Below, piece by piece: positions 10,904 through 50,745 of a DNA stretch of 64,000 bases. Origin of the DNA: Gemmatimonadota bacterium (lineage in GTDB: Bacteria > Gemmatimonadota > Gemmatimonadetes > Palauibacterales > Palauibacteraceae). The stretch covers positions 3,520,001-3,584,000 of the forward strand of contig OZ220691.1 in the NCBI GenBank assembly GCA_965116475.1, read 5' to 3'. Under the pieces are notes generated by a model. The model saw only the letters and a program-made list of their open reading frames with translations. It was not told where the DNA came from and did not search any database. How positions within the stretch are numbered: the stretch's first letter is position 1; the number at the start of each line of letters is the position of its first letter. Made by a program: the position numbers and the translations under genes.

Positions 10904-10916
10904 GTGGGAGTGTGAC

Positions 10917-11423: not shown

Positions 11424-11427
11424 GGAT

Positions 11428-21197: not shown

Positions 21198-21215
21198 GGG
21201 GATCTCCGTTCGCTA

Positions 21216-21399: not shown

Positions 21400-21415
21400 C
21401 CACACGTTCCCGCCA
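21400..21415 (+). repeat. att core, duplicated tRNA-Sec 3' end
   Basis: CCACACGTTCCCGCCA identical to 10811-10826, preceded by CGAT as in the tRNA. Confidence 0.92.
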
Positions 21416-26654: not shown

Positions 26655-27022
26655 CCGGGACCCTCGTCGACGCCGTCCTCGGCCTCTACAACTACTGGGT
26701 CGTCATCTTCCTGATGATGACGGGGTTCTTCATCGTCATCTCGCGCGGTAACCTCATCAAGAAGGTCATCGGGCTCAACATCTTCCAGACCTCCGTCTTC
26801 CTCTTCTACATCACGGTCGGGAAGGTGAGCGGGGGCACGGCGCCGATCACGGCCGACGGACTGGAGGTCTACAGCAACCCGCTGCCGAGCGTCCTCATCC
26901 TGACGGCGATCGTCGTCGGCGTGGCGACGACCTCCGTCGCGCTCTCGCTCGTCGTGCGCATCCGCGAGGCGTACGAGACGATCGAGGAGGATGAGATCCA
27001 GGCGCAGGACGAGATTCGGTGA
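26651..27022 (+). CDS. mrpC: Mrp/Mnh antiporter subunit C
   Basis: NPLPSVLILTAIVVG motif. Confidence 0.92.
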   Translation: MTGTLVDAVLGLYNYWVVIFLMMTGFFIVISRGNLIKKVIGLNIFQTSVFLFYITVGKVSGGTAPITADGLEVYSNPLPSVLILTAIVVGVATTSVALSLVVRIREAYETIEEDEIQAQDEIR

Positions 27023-29969: not shown

Positions 29970-29972
29970 GCC

Positions 29973-30293
29973 ATGGCCGCTGACACGCACGGCACGCACG
30001 ACACGGGCGGACAGGCGACGGACCGGGGCCGGCACTACTTCGACGATCCGAAGCGCTGGAAGCGCCTGATCGCGATCCTGATCGGCGTCTGCGCCGTCGT
30101 CTTCGCGCTCGACCTCGTGAACTTCGTCCAGATGCAAATGGGGTGGCCGGAATTGCGCCACCCGGAGCGCGACTGGGAGGGCTTCCCCGAGTTCTACGCC
30201 GTCTACGGCTTCCTCGCCTACACGGCGATCGTCTACACCGCCAAGGCGCTCCGGAAGGGCGTGATGCGGGATGAGGACTACTATGATCGGTAG
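29973..30293 (+). CDS. Small membrane protein of the mrp operon
   Basis: Two TM helices; C-terminal MRDEDYYD; coupled within the operon. Confidence 0.75.
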   Translation: MAADTHGTHDTGGQATDRGRHYFDDPKRWKRLIAILIGVCAVVFALDLVNFVQMQMGWPELRHPERDWEGFPEFYAVYGFLAYTAIVYTAKALRKGVMRDEDYYDR

Positions 30294-35020: not shown

Positions 35021-36609
35021 GCGGCGCCGGGCCGAGCGACCGATCGCGCGGCCGCGATGCCAGCCTCGGATACTGGCTCCGCGATGCCGCCGAGGCCTTC
35101 CCCGACCGCGTCGCGCTCATCGACCTCTCGCGGCCCATCCCCCGCGAGGTCACGTACGCCGAACTTGACGAGCGGATGGATCGCGTTGCCAACGTGCTTT
35201 CGGATGCCGGAGTCGGGCCCGGCGACCGCTTTGCGCTGAGCGTCGGCAACCGCTTCGAGTTCGTCGAAATCCTCTTCGGGGGGATGCGCTGCGGGGCGGT
35301 CCCGGTACCCCTCAACTTCAAGCTGTCGGAGGCGTCGCTCGCCCACATCGTCCGGGACGCGGCCTGCCGGGCCGCTTTCGTCGAGACCGCCCTGACCGAA
35401 CGCTCGGCCGCGGTCGTCGAACAGTCGGAGATCGAGAGAAGGTGGGACGTCGGAGACGCCGGCCGGAGGCACGAGCGGGGAAGCGCCGGCTGGCCGGACT
35501 ACGAGCGCGCGCTCGCCGGATCGTCGGCCCGCTTCGACCCCCCGAGACTGGCGGCCGGCCACCCGGCGTTTCAGCCCTACACGTCGGGGTCGACCGGCAA
35601 GCCCAAGGGTGTCGTTCTTTCCCACGAGGGCCAGCTCTGGTGGGTGCGCTGCCTGCGGAAGTACTGGCCGGCCGACCCGGCCGACCGCGCTCTGGTCGCC
35701 GTACCCCTCTACCACAAGAACGCGATGGCCGGAGCCATCAAGCCGCTGCTGCAGGCCGGGGCTTCGGTCGTGGTTCTGCCCGGCTTCTCCCCGAAATCCT
35801 TCCTGCGGGCCCTCAGCGAGTATCGGTGTACGCAGGTGGGCGCCGTCCCCGCCGTGTTCGCGATGGTCCTGGATCGCATGGACCTGATCGCGGAGTTGGA
35901 TTTCTCGGCGCTCCGGAAGGTCACGCTGGGCTCCGCCCCGGTGCAGCCCGAACTGATGCGCGCGGTCGAGCGCGCGTTCGACGTTGAAGTGGGCGAGAGC
36001 TACGGGCTCACAGAGGGCGGACCGGTCATGATCGGACCTGCGACCGACGGACGCCCGACACCCAGGGGAAGCTGCGGCACGGCGTGGCCCGAGGGAGAGA
36101 TCAGGCTCGTGCGCGACGGCCGCGAGGATCCGGAGTACGGAGAGTTGTGGGTCCGGAATCCCGGCGTCACGACCGGCTATCACAACCTGCCCGACGTCAA
36201 CGCGGCCCGGATCCGGGACGGCTGGCTTGCCACGGGCGACCTCTTCTTCCGCGACGGGGAGGGCTTCTACTACTTCCGCGGCCGCACCGACGACATGTTC
36301 AACTCAGGCGGCGAGAACATCTATCCCAAGGAGGTGGAGGACCTGCTGCTCTCGCATCCCGATGTCCGCGACGCGGCCGTCGTGCCCGTGCCCCACGCCC
36401 TCAAGGGCGCGGTCCCGGCCGCGGTGGTCAGCCTCGGAGCGGGGGCTGGCGTCACGGCCGAATCGCTCAAGCGTTACACGCTCGAGCGGGGACCGGCGTA
36501 CGCGCATCCCCGGCGCATCGCGATCGTGCAGGAGCTGCCGCTCACCGGCGTGGGGAAGGTCGACCGGGCGGCGATTCTCGGCGTGCTGGGACACGCCGAC
36601 GGAGGGTGA
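35017..36609 (+). CDS. Class I adenylate-forming enzyme (acyl-CoA ligase)
   Basis: YTSGSTGKPKG, YGLTE, WLATGD, GGENIYP, GKVDR. Confidence 0.92.
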   Translation: MSGAGPSDRSRGRDASLGYWLRDAAEAFPDRVALIDLSRPIPREVTYAELDERMDRVANVLSDAGVGPGDRFALSVGNRFEFVEILFGGMRCGAVPVPLNFKLSEASLAHIVRDAACRAAFVETALTERSAAVVEQSEIERRWDVGDAGRRHERGSAGWPDYERALAGSSARFDPPRLAAGHPAFQPYTSGSTGKPKGVVLSHEGQLWWVRCLRKYWPADPADRALVAVPLYHKNAMAGAIKPLLQAGASVVVLPGFSPKSFLRALSEYRCTQVGAVPAVFAMVLDRMDLIAELDFSALRKVTLGSAPVQPELMRAVERAFDVEVGESYGLTEGGPVMIGPATDGRPTPRGSCGTAWPEGEIRLVRDGREDPEYGELWVRNPGVTTGYHNLPDVNAARIRDGWLATGDLFFRDGEGFYYFRGRTDDMFNSGGENIYPKEVEDLLLSHPDVRDAAVVPVPHALKGAVPAAVVSLGAGAGVTAESLKRYTLERGPAYAHPRRIAIVQELPLTGVGKVDRAAILGVLGHADGG

Positions 36610-37568
36610 ACGCCCCGCTCGTGGTCGGGGCTCGGCGGTCGCCGCTCTCCCGCGCGCAGGCCGCCTGGGTGGGCGAACGGCTGCGCGAACGGTGGCGCGG
36701 GTTGTCCGTCGAATACCGGTTCATCTCCACCGCCGGGGACCGGGATCGCGGGACGCCGCTTCCGGAGATCGGAGGGAAGGGGCTGTTCACCGAAGACCTC
36801 GAACGCGCGCTCCGCGAGGGGGACATCGACGTCGCGGTGCATTCCCTGAAGGACCTGCCGGCGGACCTCCCGAATGGGTTGATGCTGGGGGCGATCCCTT
36901 CCCGTGAAGATGCCCGCGACGTGCTCGTGGTCCGGGATTCCCCGGTCTCCGCGCCGCGGAGCGCCGATGGACGCGACCTCCTGCGACTCCTCCCCTCCGG
37001 GGCACGCGTCGGCACGTCATCGCTGCGCCGCGCCGCGCAGTTGCGCGTCGTCCGCGCCGACCTCGAGCCGCGGCCGATCCGCGGGAATGTCGACACGCGG
37101 CTCCGCAAGCTGGAGGAGGGCCGCTTCGAAGCGCTGGTCCTGGCGGCGGCCGGGCTGCGGCGCCTCGGGCTGTGGCCCCGCGGCGCCCACGCCCTGGATG
37201 AGAGCTGGCTGCCGGCCCCCGGGCAGGGCGCGCTCGGGCTCCAGTGTCGAGCCGGCGAGGATGACATGGCTGCCCGCGTCCGGGCGCTCGACGATCCGGC
37301 CGCCCGAGCGGAGGTGACCGCCGAGCGGGCGCTCCTGGCGGCGCTCGAGGGGGGGTGCCGCGTCCCCATCGCCGCCCGTGCTTCACTGCAGGGGGAGGAT
37401 CTTCTGCTGCGCGCGGCCGTCTACGATGTGGGCGGCGGCCCGCCGCTCGAGGCGGCCGACACGGGGTCGCGCGCTTCGGCCGGCATGCTCGGTCGCCGGT
37501 TGGCGGAACAGTTGCTGGAGGCGGGGGCGTCCGGCCTCGTGGAGCGTGCGCGGCGGGTCAGTCCGTGA
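36606..37568 (+). CDS. hemC: Hydroxymethylbilane synthase
   Basis: GGKGLFT, AVHSLKDLP, GTSSLRR, LEGGC cofactor Cys. Confidence 0.96.
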   Translation: MNAPLVVGARRSPLSRAQAAWVGERLRERWRGLSVEYRFISTAGDRDRGTPLPEIGGKGLFTEDLERALREGDIDVAVHSLKDLPADLPNGLMLGAIPSREDARDVLVVRDSPVSAPRSADGRDLLRLLPSGARVGTSSLRRAAQLRVVRADLEPRPIRGNVDTRLRKLEEGRFEALVLAAAGLRRLGLWPRGAHALDESWLPAPGQGALGLQCRAGEDDMAARVRALDDPAARAEVTAERALLAALEGGCRVPIAARASLQGEDLLLRAAVYDVGGGPPLEAADTGSRASAGMLGRRLAEQLLEAGASGLVERARRVSP

Positions 37569-38202
37569 GGCGCCGCGAACCGTCCCCCTGAAACCCGTAC
37601 ACGAAGGTTACGCAGCCGGGCGTCGCCTGGGGGCAGTAGTAGCTCAGGATCCTCAGCTTCGCGTAGCCCCCCTCCGCCGTCCGGATCACGTACGTTTCAT
37701 CCTTCGGCTCGAGGAGGTGGGAGAAGAACCCATACCGGTACCAGCGTTCGAGTCCGGGCGTCGCGGGGCCATCTTCCAGCCCACCCTCCGTCGTCGCGTA
37801 ACCGGATGCCGGAGCCTCCGTCACGGCCTCCCACCGCGCACTCGTGGCGATGGCCCCACCGGCTCCGGGATACCCGCTCCCGCCGTTCACGACGAGGTGG
37901 TATCGGTTGAGCGCGAGATCCCAGCCCGCGAGGGGCCCGTCGATCGCGCTCCCCTTGTCGAAATCGAAGTGGACCCACCGCGACCCGTCCCGCGCATCGA
38001 CGGTGACGGTGTCCACGACGAACCGGTCCACGGGCGGGCGCGGGGCGACGGGCGTGGGAACGAAGGTGACCGGGTCGGGCCTCACGAACGAGCCGGCGAC
38101 GACGACCACGATGACCAGCAGGAACACGGCACCCGCGGCGTACAGCACAACCGGCCGGCCCCCGCCCACCGGTTCCTCGCGCCTCACCGCCCCCGGTACC
38201 AC
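37558..38202 (-). CDS. HmuY family heme-binding protein
   Basis: WDLALNRY, WYRY..FSHLLEP, YVIRTAEGGYAKLRILSYY; N-terminal anchor. Confidence 0.85.
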   Translation of the reverse strand: MVPGAVRREEPVGGGRPVVLYAAGAVFLLVIVVVVAGSFVRPDPVTFVPTPVAPRPPVDRFVVDTVTVDARDGSRWVHFDFDKGSAIDGPLAGWDLALNRYHLVVNGGSGYPGAGGAIATSARWEAVTEAPASGYATTEGGLEDGPATPGLERWYRYGFFSHLLEPKDETYVIRTAEGGYAKLRILSYYCPQATPGCVTFVYGFQGDGSRRLTD

Positions 38203-38411
38203 GGAGAGTCGTGCCGCGTGCCGCTCAGGAACCTGGCCAGGTTGGCCAGATAGTAGGCCAGCGCCGCCGCCGCGAGCGCAAAGACCACGCCGATCGCCAG
38301 CGCTCCGAGACTCCCGGCGCGCGCGAAGATCCGGAACTCCCAGGCGGCGAAGACGGCGCAGAAGACGATGGCTGTGGCGATGAGAAAGCGGTGAAACCCG
38401 ATGATCGACAT
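38184..38411 (-). CDS. Small two-TM membrane protein
   Basis: MSIIGFHRFLIATAI hydrophobic ORF overlapping the HmuY gene start. Confidence 0.65.
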   Translation of the reverse strand: MSIIGFHRFLIATAIVFCAVFAAWEFRIFARAGSLGALAIGVVFALAAAALAYYLANLARFLSGTRHDSPWYRGR

Positions 38412-38539
38412 GGGATGTTCCGATTCACGGTGGACTTCGGTCCGTCTGCCGAACATCGTACGAAAGCGGGACACGCGCCGAAACGTCGCGTCCGCCCCCT
38501 GTTGACCCTCCACCGGCCCGATTGGAGCTTCCACTCCCC

Positions 38540-39430
38540 ATGAGTTCCGGATTTCGTACCTACCACGACGTGGACGAACTGCGTTCCGATCTCCCGGATC
38601 AGATCGCGGCCGGGGACGAGCGCGTGTCGGTGCGGCTCGCCTCCGTCGCGCGCGTCATCGCCGTGATGAGCGGCAAGGGCGGCGTGGGGAAGAGCCTCGT
38701 CTCCGCCCTCCTCGCGACCGCGCTTGCCCGCCGCGGGGATCGCGTGGGCCTCGTCGACGCGGACCTGAACGGCCCCAGCGTGCCGCGCCTGCTCGGTGTC
38801 GAGCCGGGGCCTCTCGCCGAATCCCGGGACGGGTTCGCGCCGCCGTCCTCGCGCGCCGGGGTCCGCGTCATGTCGATGGCGTTCCTCGTGGAGCCGGACC
38901 GCGCCCTCACATGGCGCGAGCCCGCCGACGCCGGCTTCGTGTGGCGGGGCGCCCAGGAGCGGGGGGCGCTGCGGGAATTCCTGTCGGATGTCGCGTGGGG
39001 GGAGCTGGATGTGCTCCTCGTGGACCTTCCGCCGGGCACCCAGCGGCTCGCCGAACTCCACGCGCTCGTCCCCGGACTCGCGGGCATCCTCGCGGTCACC
39101 ATCCCGAGCGCGGCCTCCCGCGATGCCGTGGCCCGTTCGCTCGATCTCGCCCGGAGACGTGGTCTCCCCCTCCTGGGACTCGTGGAGAACCTGTCGGGGG
39201 TTCGCTGCGACGCCTGCGGAGGGCTCGCGCCTCTGCACGCCGGAGATGCCGGGGCGGAACTGGCGAAACGCTTCCAGACCCGCCTGCTCGCCCGCCTCCC
39301 CTTCGACGCGGCGCTGGGGGCCGCGGCGGATGAGGGGCGGCTCGAGCGGTGGCTGGCCGACGGGGGCGGAACCGCCGTTGCGCTCCGGAGGATGGTCGAC
39401 GCCCTTCGCGCGGCGCCCGTGACGCCATGA
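38540..39430 (+). CDS. Mrp/NBP35 (ApbC) family Fe-S carrier ATPase
   Basis: SGKGGVGKS, DADLNGPS, DLPPGT, VENLS..CDAC. Confidence 0.9.
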   Translation: MSSGFRTYHDVDELRSDLPDQIAAGDERVSVRLASVARVIAVMSGKGGVGKSLVSALLATALARRGDRVGLVDADLNGPSVPRLLGVEPGPLAESRDGFAPPSSRAGVRVMSMAFLVEPDRALTWREPADAGFVWRGAQERGALREFLSDVAWGELDVLLVDLPPGTQRLAELHALVPGLAGILAVTIPSAASRDAVARSLDLARRRGLPLLGLVENLSGVRCDACGGLAPLHAGDAGAELAKRFQTRLLARLPFDAALGAAADEGRLERWLADGGGTAVALRRMVDALRAAPVTP

Positions 39431-39870
39431 AGTTCCTCTGCGTGGACTGCGATCGGCAGATGGCCTTCGACGAGCGGGCCGTACCCGGCGACGGCACGAT
39501 GGCCGCCGTGTTCCGGTGTCCCGCCTGCGGCCGCAAGACGGCGATGCTTGCGAACCCGATGGAGACGCAACTCGTGAGTTCGCTCGGCGTGAAGGTGGGA
39601 GGCCGGACGGTACCGAACGAGAACTTCGAGGGCATTCGCGGCGGCGTGGCGGAGCCGCGCGACGAAGCCCTGTCCCAGCCCCCGTTGACGAAGCCCGGGC
39701 CTGTACGCTGGAACGTGGACGCGGTCGAGCGCCTGGGTCACGTCCCCTCCTTCGTGCGGGGGATGGTGAAGAAGATCTACAACGAATACGCCCTGGAGCG
39801 CGGGATCGAGGAGATGACGCCCGCCGTCATGGACCGGGCCCGGTCCGATCTCGGGCTGGAAGGGATGTAG
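39427..39870 (+). CDS. Zinc-ribbon plus PCP_red-domain protein
   Basis: CVDC...CPAC; C-terminal WNVDAVERLGHVPSFVRGMVKK...MTPAVMDRA. Confidence 0.8.
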   Translation: MKFLCVDCDRQMAFDERAVPGDGTMAAVFRCPACGRKTAMLANPMETQLVSSLGVKVGGRTVPNENFEGIRGGVAEPRDEALSQPPLTKPGPVRWNVDAVERLGHVPSFVRGMVKKIYNEYALERGIEEMTPAVMDRARSDLGLEGM

Positions 39871-39876
39871 GGGGCC

Positions 39877-40167
39877 GTGACGGACGGCGGTGAACGCGTG
39901 GGAGACCCGGGGGAAGGGATGGAGGTTCCGGACCCGTCCGTGGAGCGCGAGGTCCACGGACTCCGCGCCGTCATCGACCGCGACCTGTGCGTCGGCTTCG
40001 GAGACTGCATCGAGGAAGCGCCGGAGGCCTTCGATCTGGACGAGGATGGGGTGGCCGTGTTCACCGCACCGGAGCATGCCTCGCGCAAGCGTTTCGTCGA
40101 GGCGTGCGCGTCCTGCCCGGTCGATGCGATTACCGTCCTCGAAGATGGGATTGAGATCGTTCCGTGA
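39877..40167 (+). CDS. Monocluster ferredoxin, likely 3Fe-4S (start may be ATG 39919)
   Basis: DRDLCVGFGDC...APEAF...CPVDAI. Confidence 0.85.
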   Translation: MTDGGERVGDPGEGMEVPDPSVEREVHGLRAVIDRDLCVGFGDCIEEAPEAFDLDEDGVAVFTAPEHASRKRFVEACASCPVDAITVLEDGIEIVP

Positions 40168-41111
40168 ACGCCGGCTCCGGGCCGAAGCCGCCGCTGGTCA
40201 CGGCGGAGGCGGTCTCCTGGGGCTACCCCGACGGGAGCCCGGCCCTCCGCGATCTCTCGCTCGAAGTCCGGCAGGGAGAACGCCTCGCGCTGCTCGGCCC
40301 GAACGGATCCGGCAAGTCGACCTTCCTCCGCCTCCTCGGCGGCGACGGCGCCCCGGGGATTCGCCGGGACCCCACCGTCGACGATGCCCGACAGCGCTGG
40401 CTCGCCCCCGATCGGCCCGCCCTCCGCACATGGCTCAGCGGGCGCGAGAATGCGGCCGTCCTCCTCGAACTCCACGGCGCCGGACCCGGTGAGGCCCGCG
40501 CCACGGCGGACGCGTGGCTCGCGCGCTTCGGGCTCGAGGCGGACGCGGACCGCCCCGCCGGCGCCTATTCGAGCGGCATGCGGAGGCGGCTTGCCCTCGC
40601 GACCGCATTCGGGGTCGCGGCCCCGCTCCTCCTTCTCGACGAACCGCTGGCCGGGCTCGACCCCGCCGGCCGGGCCGTCTTCGCCGAGGCCCTCGCCGAC
40701 CACCGCGCCGCGGGTGGGACCGCGGTGCTATCCGCCCATGATCCGGCCTTCGCGGCGGCGCACTGCGACCGCGTCGCATTCATCGTCGACGGCCGGTGCG
40801 CCGTCGCCGACACCCCGGCGCGGCTCCTGGAGCGCGTCGGCGTCCGTCCGCGCGTGGAGATCCGGTTTGCCGCCGGACAGAGTCCCGATCCGGACACCCT
40901 CGGCCCCGCCCCGGAGGAGGTGCGCACGACGACCCGGGACGAGAGCACCGTGATCCTCGAGGTCGAGGATCCGAGCCGGGCCCTCCCCGAGACGCTGGCC
41001 TGGGTGCTGCGCGGCGGCGCCTCCGTCGCCTCCGTCGACGTCCGGGAACCGGATCTCGCGGACGCCTTCGCGCTGCTCACGGGCCGACGCCTGAAAGAGC
41101 GCGTCCGGTGA
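40164..41111 (+). CDS. ABC transporter ATP-binding protein (exporter type)
   Basis: GPNGSGKS, YSSGMRRR, LLLDEP. Confidence 0.88.
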   Translation: MNAGSGPKPPLVTAEAVSWGYPDGSPALRDLSLEVRQGERLALLGPNGSGKSTFLRLLGGDGAPGIRRDPTVDDARQRWLAPDRPALRTWLSGRENAAVLLELHGAGPGEARATADAWLARFGLEADADRPAGAYSSGMRRRLALATAFGVAAPLLLLDEPLAGLDPAGRAVFAEALADHRAAGGTAVLSAHDPAFAAAHCDRVAFIVDGRCAVADTPARLLERVGVRPRVEIRFAAGQSPDPDTLGPAPEEVRTTTRDESTVILEVEDPSRALPETLAWVLRGGASVASVDVREPDLADAFALLTGRRLKERVR

Positions 41112-41815
41112 CGATCGGGCGTCTGGCGTGGCGCTCGGCCCTCCGACGGCGGCGGTTGTTCCTGTGGAACGTCGCCGTCCCCCTCCTCCTCCTCACGCCC
41201 GTCGCCCTCAGCGCCGCCGCGGCGCCCCACCGGGTCGCCGTCTTCGGCGTATTCATCGTCTTCTTCGGGGCCTTCGGCTCCTCCATCCCCGCCGTGCGCG
41301 ACGCCCGCGACGGCTGGCTCGATGAGATCCTCCGCACCGGTTACTCCGCGCCCCGCTGGCTCCTCGAGCGCACGCTCGCCGGCACGACGCTTGACGCCCT
41401 CCAGCTCGCGCCCGCGCTTCTCGTGCTCCTGTGGTCGTCCGGCGGCGCCGGCGCGGCCCCCGCCGTGCTCCTGTCCGTCCTCGCGACGCTGTGGTTCGCG
41501 AACCTGCTCGGTCCGCTCGTGGCCGCTGCGGTGCGTTCGCTCGCCGAAGCGGCCCTCGCCTCCGCGGCGCTTTCCCTCCTTCTCCTGCACTTCGCGGGCT
41601 TCTTCCGGACCCCCGGTCCGGGCTGGACCTCCCTCGTCGCCGAGTGGAACCCGTACACGCCGCTTCGGGCCGCGCTCACGGCGGGCACGGGCGGGATGCC
41701 CATGGACGCTTCGGTCTGGCTGCGCAGCCTTCTCGTCGCGGCCGGTCTCACCTTCGGAGCCGCCGTTTTCGCCTCGGATTGGACCCGCCGCCTCCGCTGG
41801 CCGAGGACGCCGTAG
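41108..41815 (+). CDS. ABC-2 type permease
   Basis: ~6 TM helices; GTGA-type overlap with the ATPase; WNPYT. Confidence 0.7.
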   Translation: MTIGRLAWRSALRRRRLFLWNVAVPLLLLTPVALSAAAAPHRVAVFGVFIVFFGAFGSSIPAVRDARDGWLDEILRTGYSAPRWLLERTLAGTTLDALQLAPALLVLLWSSGGAGAAPAVLLSVLATLWFANLLGPLVAAAVRSLAEAALASAALSLLLLHFAGFFRTPGPGWTSLVAEWNPYTPLRAALTAGTGGMPMDASVWLRSLLVAAGLTFGAAVFASDWTRRLRWPRTP

Positions 41816-41868
41816 GGTGGTGTCTCGGAGGTCCCCGGCTATTCGAGCGCCGATGCCTCCGTCCCCGT

Positions 41869-41897
41869 TTGACTTTCCCTATGGGCAGCCGCACCTT
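41869..41897 (+). promoter_or_regulatory. Possible sigma70-type promoter for the USP-to-cytochrome operon
   Basis: TTGACT-N17-CACCTT in the 260-bp intergenic gap. Confidence 0.3.
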
Positions 41898-42074
41898 CTT
41901 GGCGCATAAGCGGGGTTCCGGACCTTCCGGCAGCCCCGAAAACCGTGGACCAGCGTCGCCGAATTCCTCGTCCGTGGCCGATTTGCGCGGGCTGCGTACA
42001 TCCGGGCTTCGCACCCGGGCGAGGTTGGTGCGAGCAGCGTGAACCGGCCGCAGCAAGCCGTCCAGCGGAGCGCC

Positions 42075-44363
42075 ATGTATCGAGAGGTATTCGTCCCGGT
42101 CGATAACTCGCGCGAGTCGGACTGGGCCGTGGACCGAGCCATCGAACTTTGCGCTCGCTCCGGTGGCCGCATCACCGGCTCCCACGTCTACGCCGCACGC
42201 CTCCACGACATCCGGTTCCGCCAGCTCGAGATCGGGCTCCCGGCCCAGTTCCAGGAGCCGGCGGAAATTCGCAGACAACGCAAGATCCACGACAAGCTGA
42301 TCGAGAAGGGGCTTCAGCTCATCTCCGACAGCTTCCTCGACCAGCTCCACCGCCGTTGCGCCGAAGCCGGGGTGACCCTCACGCGGCAGCTCCTCGAGGG
42401 CATCAACTACGAGGAGATCATCAACGAGGCGAACCGCGGCGGCGGGCGCCTCCCGAGCCTCATCGGCTTCGATCCCAACATCGCCCACAACTACGACGGC
42501 AGCGAGAAGCAGCGCACGGACGTCAAGCTGGGCGAGGACGGCCGCCTGCTCGCCGAAGACGAAGAGCAGGAGGAAAAGCTCGCCGGCACCTCCGGCCGCG
42601 ACTACGACCTCGTCACCATCGGCGCCCACGGCCTCGGGCGGCAGGAGCGGAGCCGCCTCGGCGGCGTCGTGGCGCGCGCGCTGCGCGGGATCGAGAAGGA
42701 CGCGCTCATCATCCGCGACGACCGGCCGCTGGAGGGCGGAAAGTGGCTCGTCGGCGTGGACGGCTCGGCCTACGCCTACAAGGGCCTGCGGATCGCGCTC
42801 GACATGGCCCGCGAATACGGCGCCAAGGTCTACATCGCGAGCGCCTTCGACGTGCAGTACCACCACGTCGTCTTCCACAACATCAAGGACGTGCTCTCGG
42901 TCCAGGCCTCGAAGGTGTTCAAGTTCGAGGAACAGGAAGAGCTCCACAACAACATCATCGACAAGGGCCTGCTCCGCCTCTGCAAGGCGAACATCAAGCG
43001 GGCGGAGGTGATGGCGAGCGAGTATCCCGAGGTCGAGATCGAGACCCAGGTGCTCATCGGGAAGCCCTTCGACGCGCTCCTGAAGTGGGCCGACGAGATC
43101 GACCCTTCGCTGCTCGTCGTGGCCCGCCACGGCTCGCACCGCATCGAGGGCACGGACATCGGCTCGCAGGCCGACAACCTCGTCTCCCTCGCCGACACGA
43201 ACATCCTGCTCATCGGGACGGGGAACGTCCGGCCCGAGGAGATCCCCTGGATCGAGGAGGATGGCGAAGCCGGGCTCGAGTGGGCGCCCGAAGCGGAGGT
43301 GAGGATCCTGCGCGTGCCGCCGTTCGCGCTGGGGATCGCGCGCAAGGCCGTCGAGGAGTTCGTCCTCGAGCACTACGGCCCGGGGAGCCGTTACGCGGCC
43401 GCCTTCGTACCAAACCCGAAGGATGAGAAGCAGTACCGGACCTCCCGGCCGGCGGACGGAAACGCTGCGGACGGAAACGCTGCGGACGGCAAAGCCGCGA
43501 CCGGCAACGGGGCCAACGGCACGGCGCAGGTGGCGCGCGACGCCCTCGAGACCGGCGCGGCCCCGTCGATCGCCGAGGTCGGACAGGCCGCCAACGGGCG
43601 CGCCAACGGAGAGAAGGCCGAACTCTGGAACCGCGACCAGTTGCCCGTCGTGACCAACGAACGCCTCGACGAGGCGATCAAGAAGCTCCTTCCGACCCAC
43701 ATGCAGCTCGTGATGGGGATCGGCGATGCGGAGGAACTCGCTCTCGCCGAGGTGAAGGCGGACGAGGCGATGAAGCGGACCGTCGTGGAGACGAGCGACG
43801 CCGACGCCTTCGAGGCCCCGCTCCCCGTCATGGCGAAGTGCCCGGTGACGGACAACCAGATCCCTCGCGACCGCACGGCCGCCGACCCGATCGTCTGGAC
43901 GCACGAGGCGTTCGACCGGCTGGGCCGCGTGCCGCTCATCGCCCGCCCCCTCGCGCGCAACACCGTGGAGCGCTTCGCCCGCGACCAGGGCATGTGGCGC
44001 GTGACGACGCTCGTGATGGATGAGAACAAGGACGCGATGATCGCGGCCGACGAGTTCGACCTCGACACGATGCTCGTGATGTTCAACGAGTTGAAGGCGA
44101 AGCAGGCCCGGGCCGAAGCCGCCGGCGTCGACGGCATGAGCGAGGAGATGAAGCGCTTCATCGAGGAGGCCAAGGCCTCGGGCGTGACGCGCTGTCCGAT
44201 CCGCGACATCGAGCAGCAGGCGGACGACTGTCCCGTCGACTTCAAGATGGTCTCGCCCGACGACGCCCGCGCGGCGGTAGAGAAGTTCGCGCGCACGGAA
44301 CTGGGAGACGAGACGGGAGCGGACACCCCTCCCGCTTCGGAGCAGGGATCTCCCGCGAAGTGA
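42075..44363 (+). CDS. Universal stress protein (two USP domains) with two PCP_red-like domains
   Basis: VFVPVDNS, LVTIGAHG, LVGVDGS, LLVVARHG; WAPEAE...VPPF and WTHEAF...VPLI segments. Confidence 0.85.
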   Translation: MYREVFVPVDNSRESDWAVDRAIELCARSGGRITGSHVYAARLHDIRFRQLEIGLPAQFQEPAEIRRQRKIHDKLIEKGLQLISDSFLDQLHRRCAEAGVTLTRQLLEGINYEEIINEANRGGGRLPSLIGFDPNIAHNYDGSEKQRTDVKLGEDGRLLAEDEEQEEKLAGTSGRDYDLVTIGAHGLGRQERSRLGGVVARALRGIEKDALIIRDDRPLEGGKWLVGVDGSAYAYKGLRIALDMAREYGAKVYIASAFDVQYHHVVFHNIKDVLSVQASKVFKFEEQEELHNNIIDKGLLRLCKANIKRAEVMASEYPEVEIETQVLIGKPFDALLKWADEIDPSLLVVARHGSHRIEGTDIGSQADNLVSLADTNILLIGTGNVRPEEIPWIEEDGEAGLEWAPEAEVRILRVPPFALGIARKAVEEFVLEHYGPGSRYAAAFVPNPKDEKQYRTSRPADGNAADGNAADGKAATGNGANGTAQVARDALETGAAPSIAEVGQAANGRANGEKAELWNRDQLPVVTNERLDEAIKKLLPTHMQLVMGIGDAEELALAEVKADEAMKRTVVETSDADAFEAPLPVMAKCPVTDNQIPRDRTAADPIVWTHEAFDRLGRVPLIARPLARNTVERFARDQGMWRVTTLVMDENKDAMIAADEFDLDTMLVMFNELKAKQARAEAAGVDGMSEEMKRFIEEAKASGVTRCPIRDIEQQADDCPVDFKMVSPDDARAAVEKFARTELGDETGADTPPASEQGSPAK
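43452..43496 (+). repeat. 15-bp in-frame tandem repeat x3 (ADGNA ADGNA ADGKA)
   Basis: GCGGACGGAAACGCT x2 plus a degenerate third copy. Confidence 0.85.
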
Positions 44364-45772
44364 CCGGGGCCCCGCTGGCCGCGGAAGCTGTCGCGAACCG
44401 GAGCCCCGCCGTGCCCGGTCCACTCTGGGACGGCGCCCCCGCCGCCGCCTCTCCGCGGGCCGAACCCGATGTCGCCATCCCGCACGTCGTCGCCTGGAAC
44501 CTGACGCGCCGCTGCAACCTCGCCTGCGCCCATTGCTACATCTCCGCCGGGTCGTGGCACGCGGCCGCGGAGGAACTCGATACCGCGGCCTGCTTCCGCG
44601 TCATCGATCAGATCCTCGAAACGAGCCCGTCGCCGCTCCTCATCCTCAGCGGGGGGGAGCCCCTCGTGCGCTCCGACCTCGAGGAGATCGCGGCCTACGC
44701 CTCGGGGCGCGGCGCCACGGTGACGGTGGGCACGAACGGCACCGGGCTCACCGATGAACGCATCGCGTCGCTGAAGGCGGCCGGCGTCCAGGGCGTCGCC
44801 CTCAGCGTCGACTCCCTCGATCCGCGCTATCACGACCGCTTCCGGCACGGGGAGGGCGCGCTCGAAGACACGCTCGCCGCGGTCGACCGGCTGGCCGAGC
44901 ACCGCCTCGACTTCCTCATCCAGTTCACGGTCACGCGCGGGAACCGGGATGAACTCGACGCCATGGCCGCCTGGGCGGATGCGAAGGGCGCCGTCTGTCT
45001 CAACGTCTACTTCCTCGTCGAGACGGGGCGGGGCGAGGGGATGCGCGGCCTCGCCCCCGCGGAGAACGACGAACTCGTGGCCCGGCTGGCCGAACTCCAG
45101 CGCGACTACCGCGGGCGGCTCATGATCCGCTCCAAGTGCCAGCCCCAACTCATGCGACACGTGTACGAGCGTGATCCCGACTCTCCGCTCCTGAACTACC
45201 GCACGCGCTGCCCCTGCGGCGTCCAGTACTGCCGCATCACGCCCGAGGGCAAGGTGACGCCGTGCCCGTACATGCCGGAGGTGGCCGGCGACCTCTCCGA
45301 CGCCTCCTTCGGCGAGATCTGGCGCGAGGCGACCGTCTTCCGCCTGCTGCGCGACGGCGAACCGGGCGGGAAGTGCGGGCGCTGCGAGTACCGCGCGCTG
45401 TGCGGCGGGTGCCGCGCCCGCGCCTACGCGGTGGACGGAGACCTGCTCGGTCCCGATCCTTCCTGCGCCTACGAGCCGGCGCCCGGCGTCGCGGATGCGA
45501 TCGAGCCCAGCCGGCCCGTCACGTACGGCTCGGCGGCCGAACAGGAGCTTCCGTGGAGCCCGGAGGCCGATGCCCGGCTCAACGCCATTCCCAGCTTCGT
45601 GCGCGGCGTGGTCGCACAGCGGGTGGAGAAGTTCGCGCGCGCGCGCGGCCATGCCCAGGTGACGCTCGACACGATGACCGAGGTCCGCCGCGCCATGCCG
45701 GTGGACTTTTCGAAACGGATGCCCTTCTTCGCCCGGAGTCGGCGGAGCGCGGGACGGGGGGATAAGCGATGA
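44360..45772 (+). CDS. NirJ/AhbCD-like radical SAM-SPASM protein with C-terminal PCP_red domain
   Basis: WNLTRRCNLACAHC, LSGGEPL, SPASM CPCG..C..PC..KCGRC..LCGGCRARAY. Confidence 0.88.
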   Translation: MTGAPLAAEAVANRSPAVPGPLWDGAPAAASPRAEPDVAIPHVVAWNLTRRCNLACAHCYISAGSWHAAAEELDTAACFRVIDQILETSPSPLLILSGGEPLVRSDLEEIAAYASGRGATVTVGTNGTGLTDERIASLKAAGVQGVALSVDSLDPRYHDRFRHGEGALEDTLAAVDRLAEHRLDFLIQFTVTRGNRDELDAMAAWADAKGAVCLNVYFLVETGRGEGMRGLAPAENDELVARLAELQRDYRGRLMIRSKCQPQLMRHVYERDPDSPLLNYRTRCPCGVQYCRITPEGKVTPCPYMPEVAGDLSDASFGEIWREATVFRLLRDGEPGGKCGRCEYRALCGGCRARAYAVDGDLLGPDPSCAYEPAPGVADAIEPSRPVTYGSAAEQELPWSPEADARLNAIPSFVRGVVAQRVEKFARARGHAQVTLDTMTEVRRAMPVDFSKRMPFFARSRRSAGRGDKR

Positions 45773-47541
45773 AGCGCTGGTTGACCCGTGGCGTCGCCAC
45801 CCGCGGCGTGCTGCTCGCCGCCCTCGCACTGGCGGTCGCCCTCCCGCTCCTCGCGCAGGTGCCGGGGCCCGACTACGGCGAGTTCAACTTCCTCGGGCTC
45901 GACCGCCGCGGCGCGGTCTGGATCGCGGCCCAGCTCCACCTGCTGTTCGCGGCCTTCGTGCTCGGCGTGCCGATGTTCGCGGTCGTCATCGAGGCGATCG
46001 GGATGTTCGGCGGGGATGAGAAGTACGACAAGCTCGCCAAGGAATTCACCCGCCTCCTGCTCGTGGCCTACAGCGCGACCGCGATCTGGGGCGCGATCCT
46101 CGTCTTCTTCCTCTCGACGCTCTACCCCCGCTTCTGGGCCTACCTGACGGCGATCTTCGCGCCGTCGATGTGGGTGTACGCGGGCCTCTTCTTCCTCGAA
46201 TCGTTCACGCTCTACCTCTACTACTACGGGTGGGACGCGTGGAAGAAGGGCGCGGCGAAGAAGGCCCACTGGTGCCTGGGGATCATGCTCAACGTCTGGG
46301 GCACGATCGTCATGTTCATCGCGAACGGGTGGCTCACCTACATGATGAGCCCGCCCGAGGGACTCACGGCCGACACGGCCCCGCAGACCGTCCAGCTGTG
46401 GAGCGCGATCAACAACGCGACCTGGATGCCGATCAACATCCATCGGCTGTTGGCGAACGTGGTGTTCGGCGGCGCGGTGGTCGGCGCCTACGCGGCGTAC
46501 CGCTTCCTCACGAGCAAGACCGACGAGGAGCGCGCGCACTACGACTGGATGGGCTACACCGGCAACCTGATCGCGATCGGCGCGCTCATCGTCCTCCCCT
46601 TCGCCGGCTACTGGCTCGGGCGGGAGATCTACGAGTTCAGCCAGCAGATGGGCATCACGATGATGGGCGGCTTCATGAGCTGGCTCTGGATCATCCAGGC
46701 CTTCCTCATCGGCATCCTCTTCCTCGCGGGCAACTACTACCTGTGGATCGGCATGGGACGGATCCCCGGGGCGGAACGGTTCCAGCCCTACATCAAGTGG
46801 ATGCTGCTCGTGCTGGTCCTCGGGGTCATCGTGTGGGCCACGCCGAACACGATGATCGCGGATCGCGATGAGATCGCGGCCATGGGAGGGATCCGGCACC
46901 CGTTCCTGCAGGTGCTCGGGGTGATGAGCGCGAAGAACACGGCCGTCAACCTCATGATCCTGACGACGTTCCTCTCCTTCCTCATGTACCGGAGGGCGAA
47001 CAAGGATCCCGTGGTGCCGTGGGCCCGCGCGGGGACGATGCTGCAGGGCGCGGCCTTCGCGCTGTGCGCCGTCATCGTCGTGTTCTACGGCGTGTACGGC
47101 TACTTCGTGACCGCGATCGTGCGGATCGGCTTCTCCGTCTACCAGGTGCTCGCGGTTCTGGCGACGATCCTGTTCGTCATCGGGATCGACATGGCGATGC
47201 TGCGGGGCGCCAGATCCCGGGGCGAGATCCGGTGGGGGCGGATGCCGGACCGGTCGCAGTACGCGCTGCTCATCCTCGCCGTCACGTTTACGTGGCTCAT
47301 GGGGCTGATGGGCTTCGCGCGCAGCGGGATCCGGCAGCACTGGCACGTCTACGAAGTGATCCGTGACACGAGCGAGCAGGCGTTCACGCCGGCGCTCGGG
47401 CCCGCGGCGACGATCATCAGCATCTGCGTGCTCATCTTCTTCGCGCTCGTCGGCCTCATATTCTGGCTCGGCGGCCTGGCCGAACGCTCCGTCTACCAGG
47501 AAGCCGAGGCGAAGGTGAAGGCCGGGCAGGAGGGGCGATGA
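45769..47541 (+). CDS. Cytochrome bd-like oxidase subunit I homolog (no subunit II in window)
   Basis: QLHLLF (His), FFLES, ANGWLTYMMSP, IHRLLAN (His), GIRQHW. Confidence 0.8.
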   Translation: MKRWLTRGVATRGVLLAALALAVALPLLAQVPGPDYGEFNFLGLDRRGAVWIAAQLHLLFAAFVLGVPMFAVVIEAIGMFGGDEKYDKLAKEFTRLLLVAYSATAIWGAILVFFLSTLYPRFWAYLTAIFAPSMWVYAGLFFLESFTLYLYYYGWDAWKKGAAKKAHWCLGIMLNVWGTIVMFIANGWLTYMMSPPEGLTADTAPQTVQLWSAINNATWMPINIHRLLANVVFGGAVVGAYAAYRFLTSKTDEERAHYDWMGYTGNLIAIGALIVLPFAGYWLGREIYEFSQQMGITMMGGFMSWLWIIQAFLIGILFLAGNYYLWIGMGRIPGAERFQPYIKWMLLVLVLGVIVWATPNTMIADRDEIAAMGGIRHPFLQVLGVMSAKNTAVNLMILTTFLSFLMYRRANKDPVVPWARAGTMLQGAAFALCAVIVVFYGVYGYFVTAIVRIGFSVYQVLAVLATILFVIGIDMAMLRGARSRGEIRWGRMPDRSQYALLILAVTFTWLMGLMGFARSGIRQHWHVYEVIRDTSEQAFTPALGPAATIISICVLIFFALVGLIFWLGGLAERSVYQEAEAKVKAGQEGR

Positions 47542-48374
47542 CGAACCTGAAGATCCTGTTCACGGTCGTGGCGACGCTGGCGGTGTTCACCTTCGTGGCG
47601 AACGTGATCCCGCAGGTGCAGTCGGCGGTCCCCCGGGAGATCGTGCTCAGCGCGGACATGCCGCCGGAGGAGCTGGCGGCGATCGGCGAGGAGATCTACG
47701 CGGGGGCGGGCGGCTGCACGGCGTGCCACGGCCTCGGCACGCGCGCGCCGGACCTCCTCGGCGTGGTGGGCGGCGTGTGCGCGACGCGCGTCCCCGGGCA
47801 GAACTGCAAGGACTATCTGTGGGAGTCTCTGGTCAACCCGACGGCCTACATCGTGGAGGGCTTCGACCCCATCATGATCGACCAGAGCATCGTTTCGTCG
47901 CAGGCCGAGTTGTGGACGCTCGTCGCCTTCCTGCAATCGCAGGGCGGCGAGATCACGGTGAACGCGGACGACTTCGCCGCGGCGCTGGCGGCCGACGACG
48001 CGGCCGCGTCCGCTCCGCCGCCTCCCGTCGTGACCGACCCGAACCAGGTCGACGCGGTCGCGCTGATCACGGCACAGGGCTGCCTCGCCTGCCACGCGCT
48101 CGGCGGGGAGGGCGGCATGGTCGCGCCCCCCTTCGAGGAGTTGCGGGGACAGGATCCCGCCTTCGTCCGCGAGGGGATCGTGGATCCGATGGCGACGATC
48201 AACGAGGAATACTCGACCTTTGCCGGGACGATGCCGACGATCTTCGGCGATCTCATGTCTCCGGTCGAACTCGATGTGCTGGTGGACTTCTTCGTGGGCG
48301 GCTCGGGAGCCGGGGAGGAGGCTCCCGGCGACGCGGCGGAAGTCCCGCCCGACAGCGCGGGAGGTAGCCGATGA
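47538..48374 (+). CDS. Membrane-anchored diheme cytochrome c
   Basis: CTACH and CLACH; N-terminal TM helix. Confidence 0.88.
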   Translation: MTNLKILFTVVATLAVFTFVANVIPQVQSAVPREIVLSADMPPEELAAIGEEIYAGAGGCTACHGLGTRAPDLLGVVGGVCATRVPGQNCKDYLWESLVNPTAYIVEGFDPIMIDQSIVSSQAELWTLVAFLQSQGGEITVNADDFAAALAADDAAASAPPPPVVTDPNQVDAVALITAQGCLACHALGGEGGMVAPPFEELRGQDPAFVREGIVDPMATINEEYSTFAGTMPTIFGDLMSPVELDVLVDFFVGGSGAGEEAPGDAAEVPPDSAGGSR

Positions 48375-49168
48375 AGCGTTACCTGTCCCATCCGTTCTGG
48401 CAGGGCGCGATCGTCATCGTCGTGTCCTACATAGCGTTCGAGTGGGTGATCGGCTACGTGCTCCCGGTGATCGGCGTGGCGAGCGCTCCCGTGCCGAGTT
48501 CGGTCATCCTCCAGTACATGCTCACCGTCCTGGTGGGCATCGTCCTCTACATGAGCGCGGACGAGGCGCGCTGGAAGCGCTTCAAGAAGCCGATCCACGA
48601 GACGATGGTGCAGCCGGACCGCCGGACCGTGCGGGGCATCCTCATGGTGGCGATCCCGGCGATCATCGGCTGGCTCGCCTACGAGCGGGTGAAACCCAGC
48701 TACGCCGCGCCGGCCACGTTGCGCGCCGTCCACCCCGCGCCGCCGAACCAGCTCACCTTCCGCGGCGAGACGATCGAACTCACGGGGCTCGAGAACCCGC
48801 TGCACGAGGAAGGCTCCCTGGAGGAGCACCTGGCGGTCGGGAAGCGGATCTACGTGCGCAACTGCGTGCCCTGCCACGGCGACCTGCTCGACGGACAGGG
48901 CCACTACGCGCCGGCCTTCAACCCGGTGCCCGCCGACTTCACGAGTTCGGGCAACCTGCCCCAGCTCACGGAGAGCTACGTGTTCTGGCGCATCGTCAAG
49001 GGCGGCCCCGGCCTCCCGCGCGAGGGCACGCCGTGGGATTCGGCCATGCCGGCGTGGGAGACGATCCTCGAGCAGGACGAAATCTGGGCGACGATCCTCT
49101 ATCTCTACGACCAGACGGGGTTCACGCCGCGCACCTGGGAGGAAGAAGGGGAAGGGGGGCACGAATGA
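48371..49168 (+). CDS. Membrane-bound monoheme cytochrome c
   Basis: Three TM helices; CVPCHG; SAMPAW axial Met. Confidence 0.88.
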   Translation: MKRYLSHPFWQGAIVIVVSYIAFEWVIGYVLPVIGVASAPVPSSVILQYMLTVLVGIVLYMSADEARWKRFKKPIHETMVQPDRRTVRGILMVAIPAIIGWLAYERVKPSYAAPATLRAVHPAPPNQLTFRGETIELTGLENPLHEEGSLEEHLAVGKRIYVRNCVPCHGDLLDGQGHYAPAFNPVPADFTSSGNLPQLTESYVFWRIVKGGPGLPREGTPWDSAMPAWETILEQDEIWATILYLYDQTGFTPRTWEEEGEGGHE

Positions 49169-50745
49169 GCGCGCCCCGGCGCCGGGCCCGCGGGATGTTC
49201 GCGCTTGGCGGACTCGTCGTCATCGCCGCCGCCGCCGCGCCCCCGCTATCGGGACAGGAAGACGCGGCCGCCGCGGGCAAGGTCGTGTACGACCGCTGGT
49301 GCGCGGAGTGTCACGGCGAAACCGGGCAGGGAGATGGCTCCGCCGCCGCCTCGATGCTGCCCCGGCCCCGGGACTTCACGCAGGCGCTCTACCAGATCCG
49401 GACGACCGGCAGCGGACAGCTCCCGACGGACGCGGACATCCGGTTCGCGATCGAGAACGGGCTCCCCGGGACGACGATGCCGGGCTGGCCCAATCTCACG
49501 GACCAGGAGATCGACGACCTCATCGTCTATCTGAAGAGCTTTTCGCGGTTCTTCGGCCAGGGTCCGGCCCCCGAACCGCTCGACTTCGGGTCCGATCCCG
49601 GCGGCGGTCCCGCGGCGATCGAGGCGGGGGCGGCCGCCTACCTCACGATGCTGTGCGAGGAGTGCCACGGCCTGTCCGGGCGGGGAGACGGGACCTCGGC
49701 GCCGACGCTGGAGGATTGGCGGGGCCTCCCCATTCGCGCGGCCGACCTCACGGAGGCGTGGGTGCTCAACGGCGGCAGCAGCGTCGAGGACATGCACACC
49801 CGGATGTTGACCGGACTGGACGGCACGCCGATGCCGTCGGCGATCGACGCCATGAACTCGGGCGTCGTCTCGCCCGATGAAGTCTGGCAGTTGGCGCACT
49901 ATCTCGCCTCCCTCGGGCCGCGCGAGATACCGCCGCTGCGCGAGGTGATCCGCGTGGGCCGCGCCGAAGGCGGGCTCCCCGCCGACGGCGGAGAGGAGGC
50001 GTGGGCGGGCGTCGAGGCCTTCTACTTCCCGATGTCGGGCCAGGTCGTCCAGGTGCCCCGCAACTTCGCGCCGACGGTCGACGGGCTCTGGGTGCAGGGG
50101 CTGCACGACGGGAACGACATGGCGCTGCGCGTCCAGTGGAACGACCCATCGAACAGCCCGGACCCGAACTGGGACGAGTGGCAGGACAAGATCACGACCG
50201 CGCTCGACCTCGATGGCGCGGAACCGATCGCCCTCGACAGCGCCGGCGCACCGACCGTGCGACCCCCGGATGCGGTGCTCCTCCAGTTCCCCTTCGAGCT
50301 GCCGGAGGGCACCGACCGGCCGTACTTCCTGATGGGGGACGCCCGCGAACCGGTCTACGTCTGGACGTGGGATTCGGAGACCGGTCTCGGCGCGGGCCGC
50401 GGCCGCGGCCTGGACTCCGTCGAACCGCTCGCGGAGGACCCGGTAACGGGGGAAGCGACGTGGGAGGAGGGGCGCTGGACGCTCTATCTGCGCCGTCCGA
50501 TCGAGCTCGAAAGCGACGGTCTCGACTTCGTCGAGGGCACGCCGACGCCCATCGCTTTCCAGGCGTGGGACGGGTCCAGCGCCGAGGTCGGGAAGCGCAG
50601 CTCCGTGAGCACGTGGTACTACATTCTTCTCGAACCTCCGGCATCCAGCACGGTCGTCGTTACGCCCCTGCTGGCCATGCTCTTGACGGGGGCCTTCGGT
50701 CTCGTTCTCGTGCGCCGGGCCCAGGACCGCCGGAGGGATGGCTAA
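49165..50745 (+). CDS. Diheme cytochrome c fused to EB_dh/DOMON-like heme-b domain
   Basis: CAECH, CEECH; LRVQWNDP, DAVLLQFP, PYFLMGD, AFQAWDG..E.GKRS; C-terminal TM helix. Confidence 0.82.
   Translation: MSAPRRRARGMFALGGLVVIAAAAAPPLSGQEDAAAAGKVVYDRWCAECHGETGQGDGSAAASMLPRPRDFTQALYQIRTTGSGQLPTDADIRFAIENGLPGTTMPGWPNLTDQEIDDLIVYLKSFSRFFGQGPAPEPLDFGSDPGGGPAAIEAGAAAYLTMLCEECHGLSGRGDGTSAPTLEDWRGLPIRAADLTEAWVLNGGSSVEDMHTRMLTGLDGTPMPSAIDAMNSGVVSPDEVWQLAHYLASLGPREIPPLREVIRVGRAEGGLPADGGEEAWAGVEAFYFPMSGQVVQVPRNFAPTVDGLWVQGLHDGNDMALRVQWNDPSNSPDPNWDEWQDKITTALDLDGAEPIALDSAGAPTVRPPDAVLLQFPFELPEGTDRPYFLMGDAREPVYVWTWDSETGLGAGRGRGLDSVEPLAEDPVTGEATWEEGRWTLYLRRPIELESDGLDFVEGTPTPIAFQAWDGSSAEVGKRSSVSTWYYILLEPPASSTVVVTPLLAMLLTGAFGLVLVRRAQDRRRDG

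Follow-up and report, generated by a model that had tools for sequence, protein, structure and literature searches.

The cytochrome bd superfamily includes the OR-N family (Murali et al., bioRxiv 10.1101/2021.01.16.426971), whose complexes were still described as uncharacterized in 2024 (PMC10839748). Nitrospira, Nitrospina and anammox bacteria all conserve the corresponding gene block, bd-like_3/alt_NxrC_2; its function is given as unknown (PMC6606698, PMC3578206), and a role as an alternative complex III has been proposed for it (PMC3578206). The accessible portions of these OR-N descriptions mention no helper genes (bioRxiv 10.1101/2021.01.16.426971, PMC6606698, PMC3578206). Here we analyze a 64,000-nt stretch of a Gemmatimonadota genome (OZ220691.1, 3,520,001-3,584,000; hereafter the window, to whose numbering positions refer), in which a bd-like block with OR-N features lies directly behind a set of helper genes. 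Judging from their sequences and genomic company, we propose that these genes would form a kit dedicated to tailoring heme and delivering it to the OR-N-type bd-like complex, a reading to which we give slightly better than an even chance.

The genome is 3.62 Mb long and 96% complete, and its relatives at 95% identity are Candidatus Palauibacter (Gemmatimonadota). The locus consists of two coupled gene runs, mrp-znPCP-fdx-abcA-abcP and then usp-rSAM-bd-cytA-cytB-cytC, with a gap of 259 bases between them. Its conserved core is made up of the ferredoxin, the Mrp paralogue, the Zn-ribbon-PCP protein, the tandem universal stress protein (USP) with PCP_red domains and the AhbD-like radical SAM-PCP enzyme; the bd-like block that follows (45769..50745) is the likely client of these helper genes.

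38540..39430, plus strand: mrp, Mrp/NBP35 P-loop ATPase paralogue, 296 aa (PF10609, 210 bits)
39427..39870, plus strand: znPCP, Zn-ribbon/rubredoxin-like (CxxC...CxxC) and PCP_red protein, 147 aa (PF08369, 44.1 bits)
39877..40167, plus strand: fdx, single-cluster ferredoxin, 96 aa (PF13370, 41.4 bits), core in Gemmatimonadota
42075..44363, plus strand: usp, tandem USP with two PCP_red domains and three Cys-Pro motifs, 762 aa (PF00582 twice; PF08369 twice, 53.9 bits over two stretches)
44360..45772, plus strand: rSAM, radical SAM/SPASM AhbD/NirJ2-like paralogue with C-terminal PCP_red, 470 aa (PF04055, 93.3 bits; PF13186, 32.2 bits; PF08369, 56.8 bits)
45769-47541, plus strand: bd, CydA-like subunit
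47538-48374, plus strand: cytA, diheme cytochrome c
48371-49168, plus strand: cytB, monoheme cytochrome c
49165-50745, plus strand: cytC, alt-NxrC-like protein with a diheme c part and a DMSO-reductase-type heme b domain

From usp to cytC, neighboring genes overlap by 4 bases at every junction. Downstream of cytC follow a gene for a carboxypeptidase-regulatory-like lipoprotein, coxBACD and cyoE.

This arrangement is well conserved. A search with the USP protein yielded 79 loci, fetched from the best 80 of 457 matches, and those that carry a name are all Gemmatimonadota (loci are numbered L, genomes G and USP relatives P). Mrp, Zn-PCP and ferredoxin genes are present in all 56 loci with 9 kb of upstream sequence (27 close and 29 distant, so in 29/29 of the distant ones). 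Downstream, the 60 loci that extend 11 kb all encode the radical SAM enzyme together with the bd-like block and coxBA, and coxBACD stands in one operon with the kit and the bd-like block in each of them (60/60). In a co-inheritance sample of 201 Gemmatimonadota genomes, orthologues of the bd-like subunit (E < 1e-260) and of the radical SAM enzyme (E < 1e-130) occur in the same 58 genomes, and PCP_red is found in all of these. The initial annotation of this stretch had offered co-occurrence with the bd-like gene as a check on its proposal, and the two genes do go together in 58 of 58 cases. A full-length coxA orthologue is also present in G065, G124 and G151, in which neither the USP gene nor the bd-like block was found. 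Because coxA occurs without the kit in these three genomes and the USP-radical SAM pair occurs in Nitrospira, which is reported to have bd-like oxidases and no canonical heme-copper oxidase (PMC6606698), the kit appears to be tied to the bd-like block and not to the A1 oxidase. It is thus the 4-base overlaps joining usp, rSAM and bd, the shared 58 genomes, coxA without the kit and the pair in Nitrospira-type loci that together connect the kit with its candidate client.

The Nitrospira-type loci come from a set of distant USP relatives comprising 80 metagenome loci, the best 80 of at least 520. A radical SAM gene follows the USP gene in 52 of the 80, and an Mrp gene is near in 6 and a Zn-PCP gene in 5. 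Three loci (L112, L117, L135) share the upstream order and gene sizes of N. moscoviensis NITMOv2_0500-0497, two of them clearly with a 0496-type gene, and more than 30 of the 52 pairs fall in this one clade; in the Nitrospira-type loci the pair stands away from bd-like genes. The named USP relatives fall in Nitrospinota, Ca. Manganitrophus, Nitrospirota, SAR324, Mariprofundaceae and Dehalococcoidia (taxa were sought for 30 out of 150 representatives, and most had none), and Nitrospinota, Ca. Manganitrophus and Nitrospirota are reported carriers of OR-N (bioRxiv 10.1101/2021.01.16.426971, PMC10839748). Before the USP, the Nitrospira-type loci also encode a 542-aa protein (L112:8211-9842) whose N. 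moscoviensis counterpart is annotated as radical SAM; after the pair comes a CopD/DUF4149-like membrane gene (L112:13586-14098; L151:13562-14008).

Metatranscriptome contigs, assembled from four runs on related strains, reach 26-30 of the 30 bins, and some of them span the usp-rSAM and rSAM-bd junctions; since these are contigs, considered without a silent control, the coverage is no proof of a single transcript. A promoter scan returned 0 sigma-70-like sites, terminators were at chance level, and a plasmid collection that was searched held no match.

The chemistry of the kit is suggested by the radical SAM enzyme. Its cysteines are conserved in 73 rows, and its top curated models are AhbD (TIGR04545, 270.2 bits) and NirJ2 (TIGR04055, 269.8 bits; cut-off 500), followed by NirJ (TIGR04051, 174.9 bits versus 515), mycofactocin (141) and PqqE (118). 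AhbD, AhbC and NirJ modify side chains of iron tetrapyrroles (PMC7242693). Gene neighborhoods lead in the same direction: a near-true AhbD (499.4 versus 500) directly follows the PCP enzyme in L095, a HemY gene follows it in L167 and L171, and genes for ChdC-family, HemE, ferrochelatase, HemY and HemA proteins flank the operon in G058, G030 and G149. The link of this enzyme to heme lies in its best models (270 bits, versus at most 141 for classic peptide maturases), in its HemY and AhbD neighbors and in the flanking heme genes. A plain AhbD was the case that the initial annotation had set against its own proposal; although the enzyme is nearest to the heme enzymes, it is not AhbD by the curated model (270.2 versus 500), and the relatives in L095 and L096 also remain below that cut-off (340.8 and 315.4).

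It is nevertheless conceivable, if fairly unlikely in our estimate, that the enzyme is an oxygen- and peroxide-independent coproheme decarboxylase (AhbD/ChdA) that backs up ChdC at low oxygen and acts as a source of ordinary heme b for every respiratory protein, with the remaining genes servicing its Fe-S clusters. Heme b can be finished by either AhbD or the peroxide-dependent ChdC (PMC7242693). The top-scoring model is AhbD, the operon is surrounded by heme b genes, a ChdC-family match is absent from 5 of the 58 genomes with the module, and in L148 an AhbD-type enzyme with a PCP tail (459.5 bits) fills the slot after the USP. Yet the score of the locus enzyme is about half the AhbD cut-off, L095 keeps its PCP enzyme beside a near-true AhbD, and a perfect agreement with the bd-like gene in 58 of 58 genomes is not what a general backup should show. 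A quick tree also parts 53 PCP-type rows from AhbD-like ones with support of 100, the latter being only two rows and the tree holding no characterized references. The enzyme does not appear to be the routine last heme step, because the genome holds HemE, ferrochelatase and a ChdC-like protein (245 versus a cut-off of 253), the AhbAB/NirDLGH siroheme decarboxylase (PF17805) was not found in this 96% complete genome, and a ChdC-family gene, in many cases directly adjoining the operon along with HemE, ferrochelatase, HemY or HemA genes, is present in 53/58 module genomes versus 34/143 others (G153 enters only the denominators and the 34/143 count). In a few loci a fusion of a ChdC/chlorite-dismutase-family domain with a Rieske [2Fe-2S] domain, below the ChdC cut-offs, adjoins the operon, hemE and ferrochelatase genes (L176:10575-11651, L180:10687-11763, L177:10903-11967).

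We consider it distinctly improbable that the radical SAM/SPASM enzyme instead modifies a protein, for example by cross-linking the bd-like subunit or attaching heme to it covalently, with the USP acting as a metal or protein chaperone. SPASM enzymes are often peptide-directed, the solved structures nearest to the model of this enzyme are PqqE and SkfB, numerous His and Met residues of the bd-like subunit other than the classic ligands are invariant, and CopD-like membrane genes lie after the pair in L151 and near it in L159. The heme-enzyme models, however, score about twice as high as PqqE and mycofactocin, HemY and AhbD are the neighbors, and no AhbD structure was among the solved matches to compete with PqqE and SkfB.

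The USP protein is a likely heme carrier, judging from its conserved residues. A fold search identified the tandem USP fold (Rv2623, Z 28.6). In the model (pLDDT 80.7), each domain carries an inserted helical hairpin of high confidence (residues 41-98 and 260-315); the hairpins form an internal repeat, each with a pair of His residues 28 positions apart (His44/His72 and His263/His291). These four are found in 131/131, 132/132, 133/133 and 132/132 of the aligned rows that have any residue there, at identities down to about 30%. Two His pairs over four helices are the pattern of bis-His heme bundles, and fold searches returned no counterpart of these hairpins outside the USP body. The ATP-binding USP motif is G-x2-G-x9-G-S/T; domain 1 has it with G for S/T and domain 2 with A for the first G, and the family consensus is nearer to the motif. 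The tail of the protein (43836-44240) holds the Cys-Pro motifs KCP, TRCP and CPVDF, conserved in 78 Gemmatimonadota rows; Cys-Pro motifs are known as heme-regulatory motifs. The radical SAM enzyme ends in MPVDF, similar to the CPVDF of the USP.

The USP subfamily comprises 233 clusters at 50% identity (E up to 1e-30, fragments included). Among 34 relatives scanned, PCP copies number from 0 to 6, often with rubredoxin-like domains and sometimes with a PNPOx-like or methyltransferase domain: P0149, P0193 and P0152 have an extra N-terminal domain (PNPOx-like in P0149), and P0182 has a C-terminal methyltransferase domain. The tandem fold, this variable domain content and the Cys-Pro motifs of Gemmatimonadota would also suit a sensor, of heme or of redox state, controlling either the complex or the enzyme, in which case the set would be regulatory and not biosynthetic. 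We regard this as very unlikely: Pfam scans of the window proteins and the USP relatives found no DNA-binding or kinase domain, and a dedicated Fe-S carrier, a ferredoxin and an enzyme point to chemistry.

The feature shared by three kit proteins is the PCP_red domain (PF08369). The initial annotation had reported four copies of this motif in three proteins, which holds in full: PF08369 exceeds its Pfam cut-off (32.5 bits) in the Zn-ribbon protein, the USP and the radical SAM enzyme, and a six-frame search of the whole genome returns only four matches, at 39709, 43281, 43896 and 45554, the very positions it gave. The first USP copy (43281) on its own scores 22.4 bits, below the cut-off, with an E-value of 5.9e-4. 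Structural models agree, the Zn-ribbon protein matching the solved PCP_red structure 2kru with Z 8.1 and a root-mean-square deviation of 2.4 Å over 58 residues, and USP residues 603-665 with Z 6.8. After 2kru and 2l09, the PCP model (39700-39870) matches mostly AAA+ ATPase lid helices, at Z 4-5 and within the chance range. Proteins consisting of three or four PCP_red copies only are encoded beside the USP-radical SAM pair or Mrp at L140:11659-12756, L144:17075-18037 and L158:14217-15221.

The domain is otherwise known as the tail of a chlorophyll-pathway enzyme. No nitrogenase-like BchB body precedes the PCP tail of these proteins, since TIGR01278 matched only at about 455-512 (32 versus 490 bits), and the six-frame PF08369 search found no BchB-type PCP tail elsewhere in the genome. 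The comparison of Mrp with BchL made in the initial annotation proves loose, the paralogue reaching 20.7 bits on the BchL-type Fe protein model (TIGR01281) versus a cut-off of 345. In their accessible parts, DPOR texts name no function for the PCP_red tail and assign it no part in BchL binding (PMC13474568, PMC12022308). We rejected a remnant of the chlorophyll pathway, as the scores on the BchB and BchL models stay far below their cut-offs and no BchB-type tail is found elsewhere in the genome.

The remaining core genes fit the supply of an Fe-S enzyme. The Mrp paralogue has the GKGGVGKS P-loop (deviant Walker A) and a CxxC motif (in 53/57 aligned rows), and is likely, by sequence, an Fe-S carrier for the radical SAM enzyme. 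It remains below the equivalog cut-offs for ApbC (NF008669, 144.7 versus 348) and MrpORP (NF041136, 213.2 versus 450), and shares 36% identity with an ordinary Mrp encoded at another place in the genome. This is what would be expected of a dedicated paralogue: P-loop and CxxC present, yet only 36% identity to the ordinary Mrp and the ApbC cut-off missed. The Zn-PCP protein is its constant neighbor, also adjoining Mrp in L144, L159, L163 and L171, and its cysteines C5, C8, C31 and C34 are invariant in 93 rows. The ferredoxin is the likely electron donor.

The putative client is, by its features, a probable member of the OR-N family. The order of the block is that of N. moscoviensis NITMOv2_3643-3640 (bd-like, diheme, monoheme, alt-NxrC). 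The CydA-like subunit is CydA-like in its N-terminal half, has no CxxCH and no CydB partner, and is encoded by the sole CydA-like gene in the genome; its His57, at the place of the first His ligand, aligns with His21 of 5doq and is invariant in 69 rows. A crude hydropathy scan gave 12 segments, the OR-N2 feature being 14 transmembrane helices. No nitrite oxidoreductase-type enzyme is among the four molybdopterin-domain matches in the genome. More distant, second bd-like blocks (about 50% identity) without adjacent helpers occur in L084:8755-14209, L085:9047-14530 and L086 (G056, G123, G082), genomes in which the kit lies elsewhere. That the block replaces complex III, with the helpers maturing a whole bd-like and A1 oxidase supercomplex, is extremely improbable: the single operon with coxBACD in 60/60 loci, the lack of any bc1-type cytochrome b found in this genus and the alternative complex III role proposed for the block (PMC3578206) speak for it, but the alternative complex III marker ActD is present in 192/201 genomes, this one included (for which reason we rejected the replacement), three genomes have this coxA and not the kit, and Nitrospira has the pair and is reported without such an oxidase (PMC6606698).

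For the dedicated heme kit we propose the following sequence of events. The Mrp paralogue would load the Fe-S clusters of the radical SAM enzyme, with the Zn-ribbon-PCP protein as an adaptor, and the ferredoxin would reduce these clusters. The enzyme would then alter the propionates of coproheme or heme b by a radical reaction, in the manner of AhbD and NirJ with their respective substrates. The two His pairs of the USP may bind one or two hemes in a bundle formed by both inserted hairpins, perhaps in a nucleotide-gated manner, and the USP would hand the heme to the CydA-like subunit. The PCP_red copies could serve as contact modules between the kit proteins. In its furthest form, which we hold tentatively and think rather doubtful, the product of the enzyme would be an undescribed heme serving as active-site cofactor of OR-N complexes, among them the one suggested as terminal oxidase in Nitrospira and Nitrospina; the USP would represent a heme chaperone of a new type, gated by nucleotide, and PCP_red would be a general docking module that links enzyme, chaperone and Fe-S loader.

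Several observations weigh against the kit as proposed. The 58 of 58 co-occurrence does not amount to 58 independent events, since the genes share one operon and the genomes are kin. Nine further genomes have PCP_red and no bd-like gene. Of the four looked into, G087 has bchB in a photosynthesis cluster and G159 a PCP-tail match only; G048 (98% complete, 40 contigs) has a divergent, contig-cut kit, G176 has a kit copy truncated by the end of its contig, and neither yielded a bd-like block. No bd-like gene was found within the flanks of the 80 distant-USP loci, many of which are short. The USP His pairs, with nearby Glu residues, could bind metal ions instead of heme, and the AhbD-type enzyme of L148 fits plain heme b synthesis. 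The ChdC-family proteins by the operon in L176 score far below the ChdC models (135 versus 235), and on this sequence evidence some operon-side family members may lack decarboxylase identity. An Arg kept in three PCP copies is lost from the first USP copy; as a lead only, this invariant Arg could act on a nucleotide in trans. The kit copy of G048 (L080, G048:C4:1-9644) has 36-47% identity and is interrupted by toxin-antitoxin-like and Fic-like genes.

Three further genes had been counted in the cluster by the initial annotation:

36606..37568, plus strand: hemC (TIGR00212, 292.7 bits versus a cut-off of 164)
37558..38202, minus strand: HmuY-family membrane-anchored protein (PF14064, 56.7 bits)
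40164..41815, plus strand: ABC-2 exporter ATPase and permease (PF00005, PF01061)

Pfam confirms the Mrp/NBP35 ATPase, the single-cluster ferredoxin, the ABC-2 exporter pair, HmuY and HemC in the window, and the core genes do adjoin the cytochrome genes. Membership of the cluster has to be narrowed, however: HmuY lies outside the operon, being on the minus strand and convergent with hemC, and we rejected the ABC exporter, HmuY and hemC as core, as they are found in 13, 8 and 2 of the 29 distant loci versus 29/29 for Mrp, Zn-PCP and ferredoxin. Over all 56 loci, the ABC pair is present in 40, HmuY in 35 and hemC in 28 (26/27 close). The ABC ATPase does not reach the cut-off of the CcmA heme exporter (TIGR01189, 98.2 versus 131.6). 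A 75-aa membrane protein at 38184-38411 on the minus strand, without a Pfam match, is encoded in 27/27 close and 3/29 distant loci. Elsewhere, the window holds a SelB-like gene (3481-5403), an integrated element at about 10800-21400 with portal-, capsid-, terminase- and integrase-like genes, and an operon (24592-32010) resembling those for multisubunit Mnh/Mrp cation-proton antiporters, a system distinct from the Mrp ATPase. A formate dehydrogenase-like gene at G000:C1:1748817-1751495 has one in-frame TGA, likely for selenocysteine.

For the main nitrite oxidizers and a manganese oxidizer, OR-N complexes have been proposed as terminal oxidase or electron-input complex. If they need their own heme kit, the genes described here would show what to co-express for an active enzyme and provide an assay for a possibly new heme, and a heterotroph-type operon with kit and client in one run, in a genome where no nitrite oxidoreductase was found, is the cleanest cloning unit. 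If true, the proposal would for the first time assign a function to this USP subfamily and to PCP_red beyond chlorophyll synthesis. The membrane block is already known; the helper set was not found in the full-text literature (including the accessible part of PMC8115632), a body of text mostly without subscription papers, and the supplement on operon contexts of the OR-N preprint may mention it.

Several parts of the locus have described counterparts from which they depart. The block has in common with OR-N/bd-like_3-alt_NxrC_2 of Nitrospira, Nitrospina and anammox bacteria that its CydA-like subunit lacks a CydB partner and precedes diheme, monoheme and alt-NxrC-like proteins, but unlike those blocks it stands in one operon with an A1 heme-copper oxidase and helper genes. 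The radical SAM enzyme has the CxxxCxxC and SPASM motifs of AhbD, NirJ2, NirJ and AhbC, which are its best-scoring models, and differs in CxHCY for CxHCR, in its PCP tail and in its score (270 versus 500 bits). The USP protein has the tandem fold of Rv2623, TTHA0350 and UspE (Z 24-29), yet with 16-25% identity, a two-His hairpin in each domain and a PCP and Cys-Pro tail. With Mrp/ApbC/NBP35 carriers the Mrp paralogue has in common the deviant Walker A and CxxC, whereas its N-terminal helix is its own and PPGTQR replaces PPGTGD. The PCP_red copies are of the same sequence family and three-helix fold as the C-terminal domain of DPOR BchB/ChlB and the stand-alone structures 2KRU and 2L09, but here their partners are a Zn ribbon, USP domains and a radical SAM enzyme in place of a nitrogenase-like body. 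The kit would resemble other cofactor-maturation cassettes such as the nir genes for heme d1, and it lies outside every tested family.

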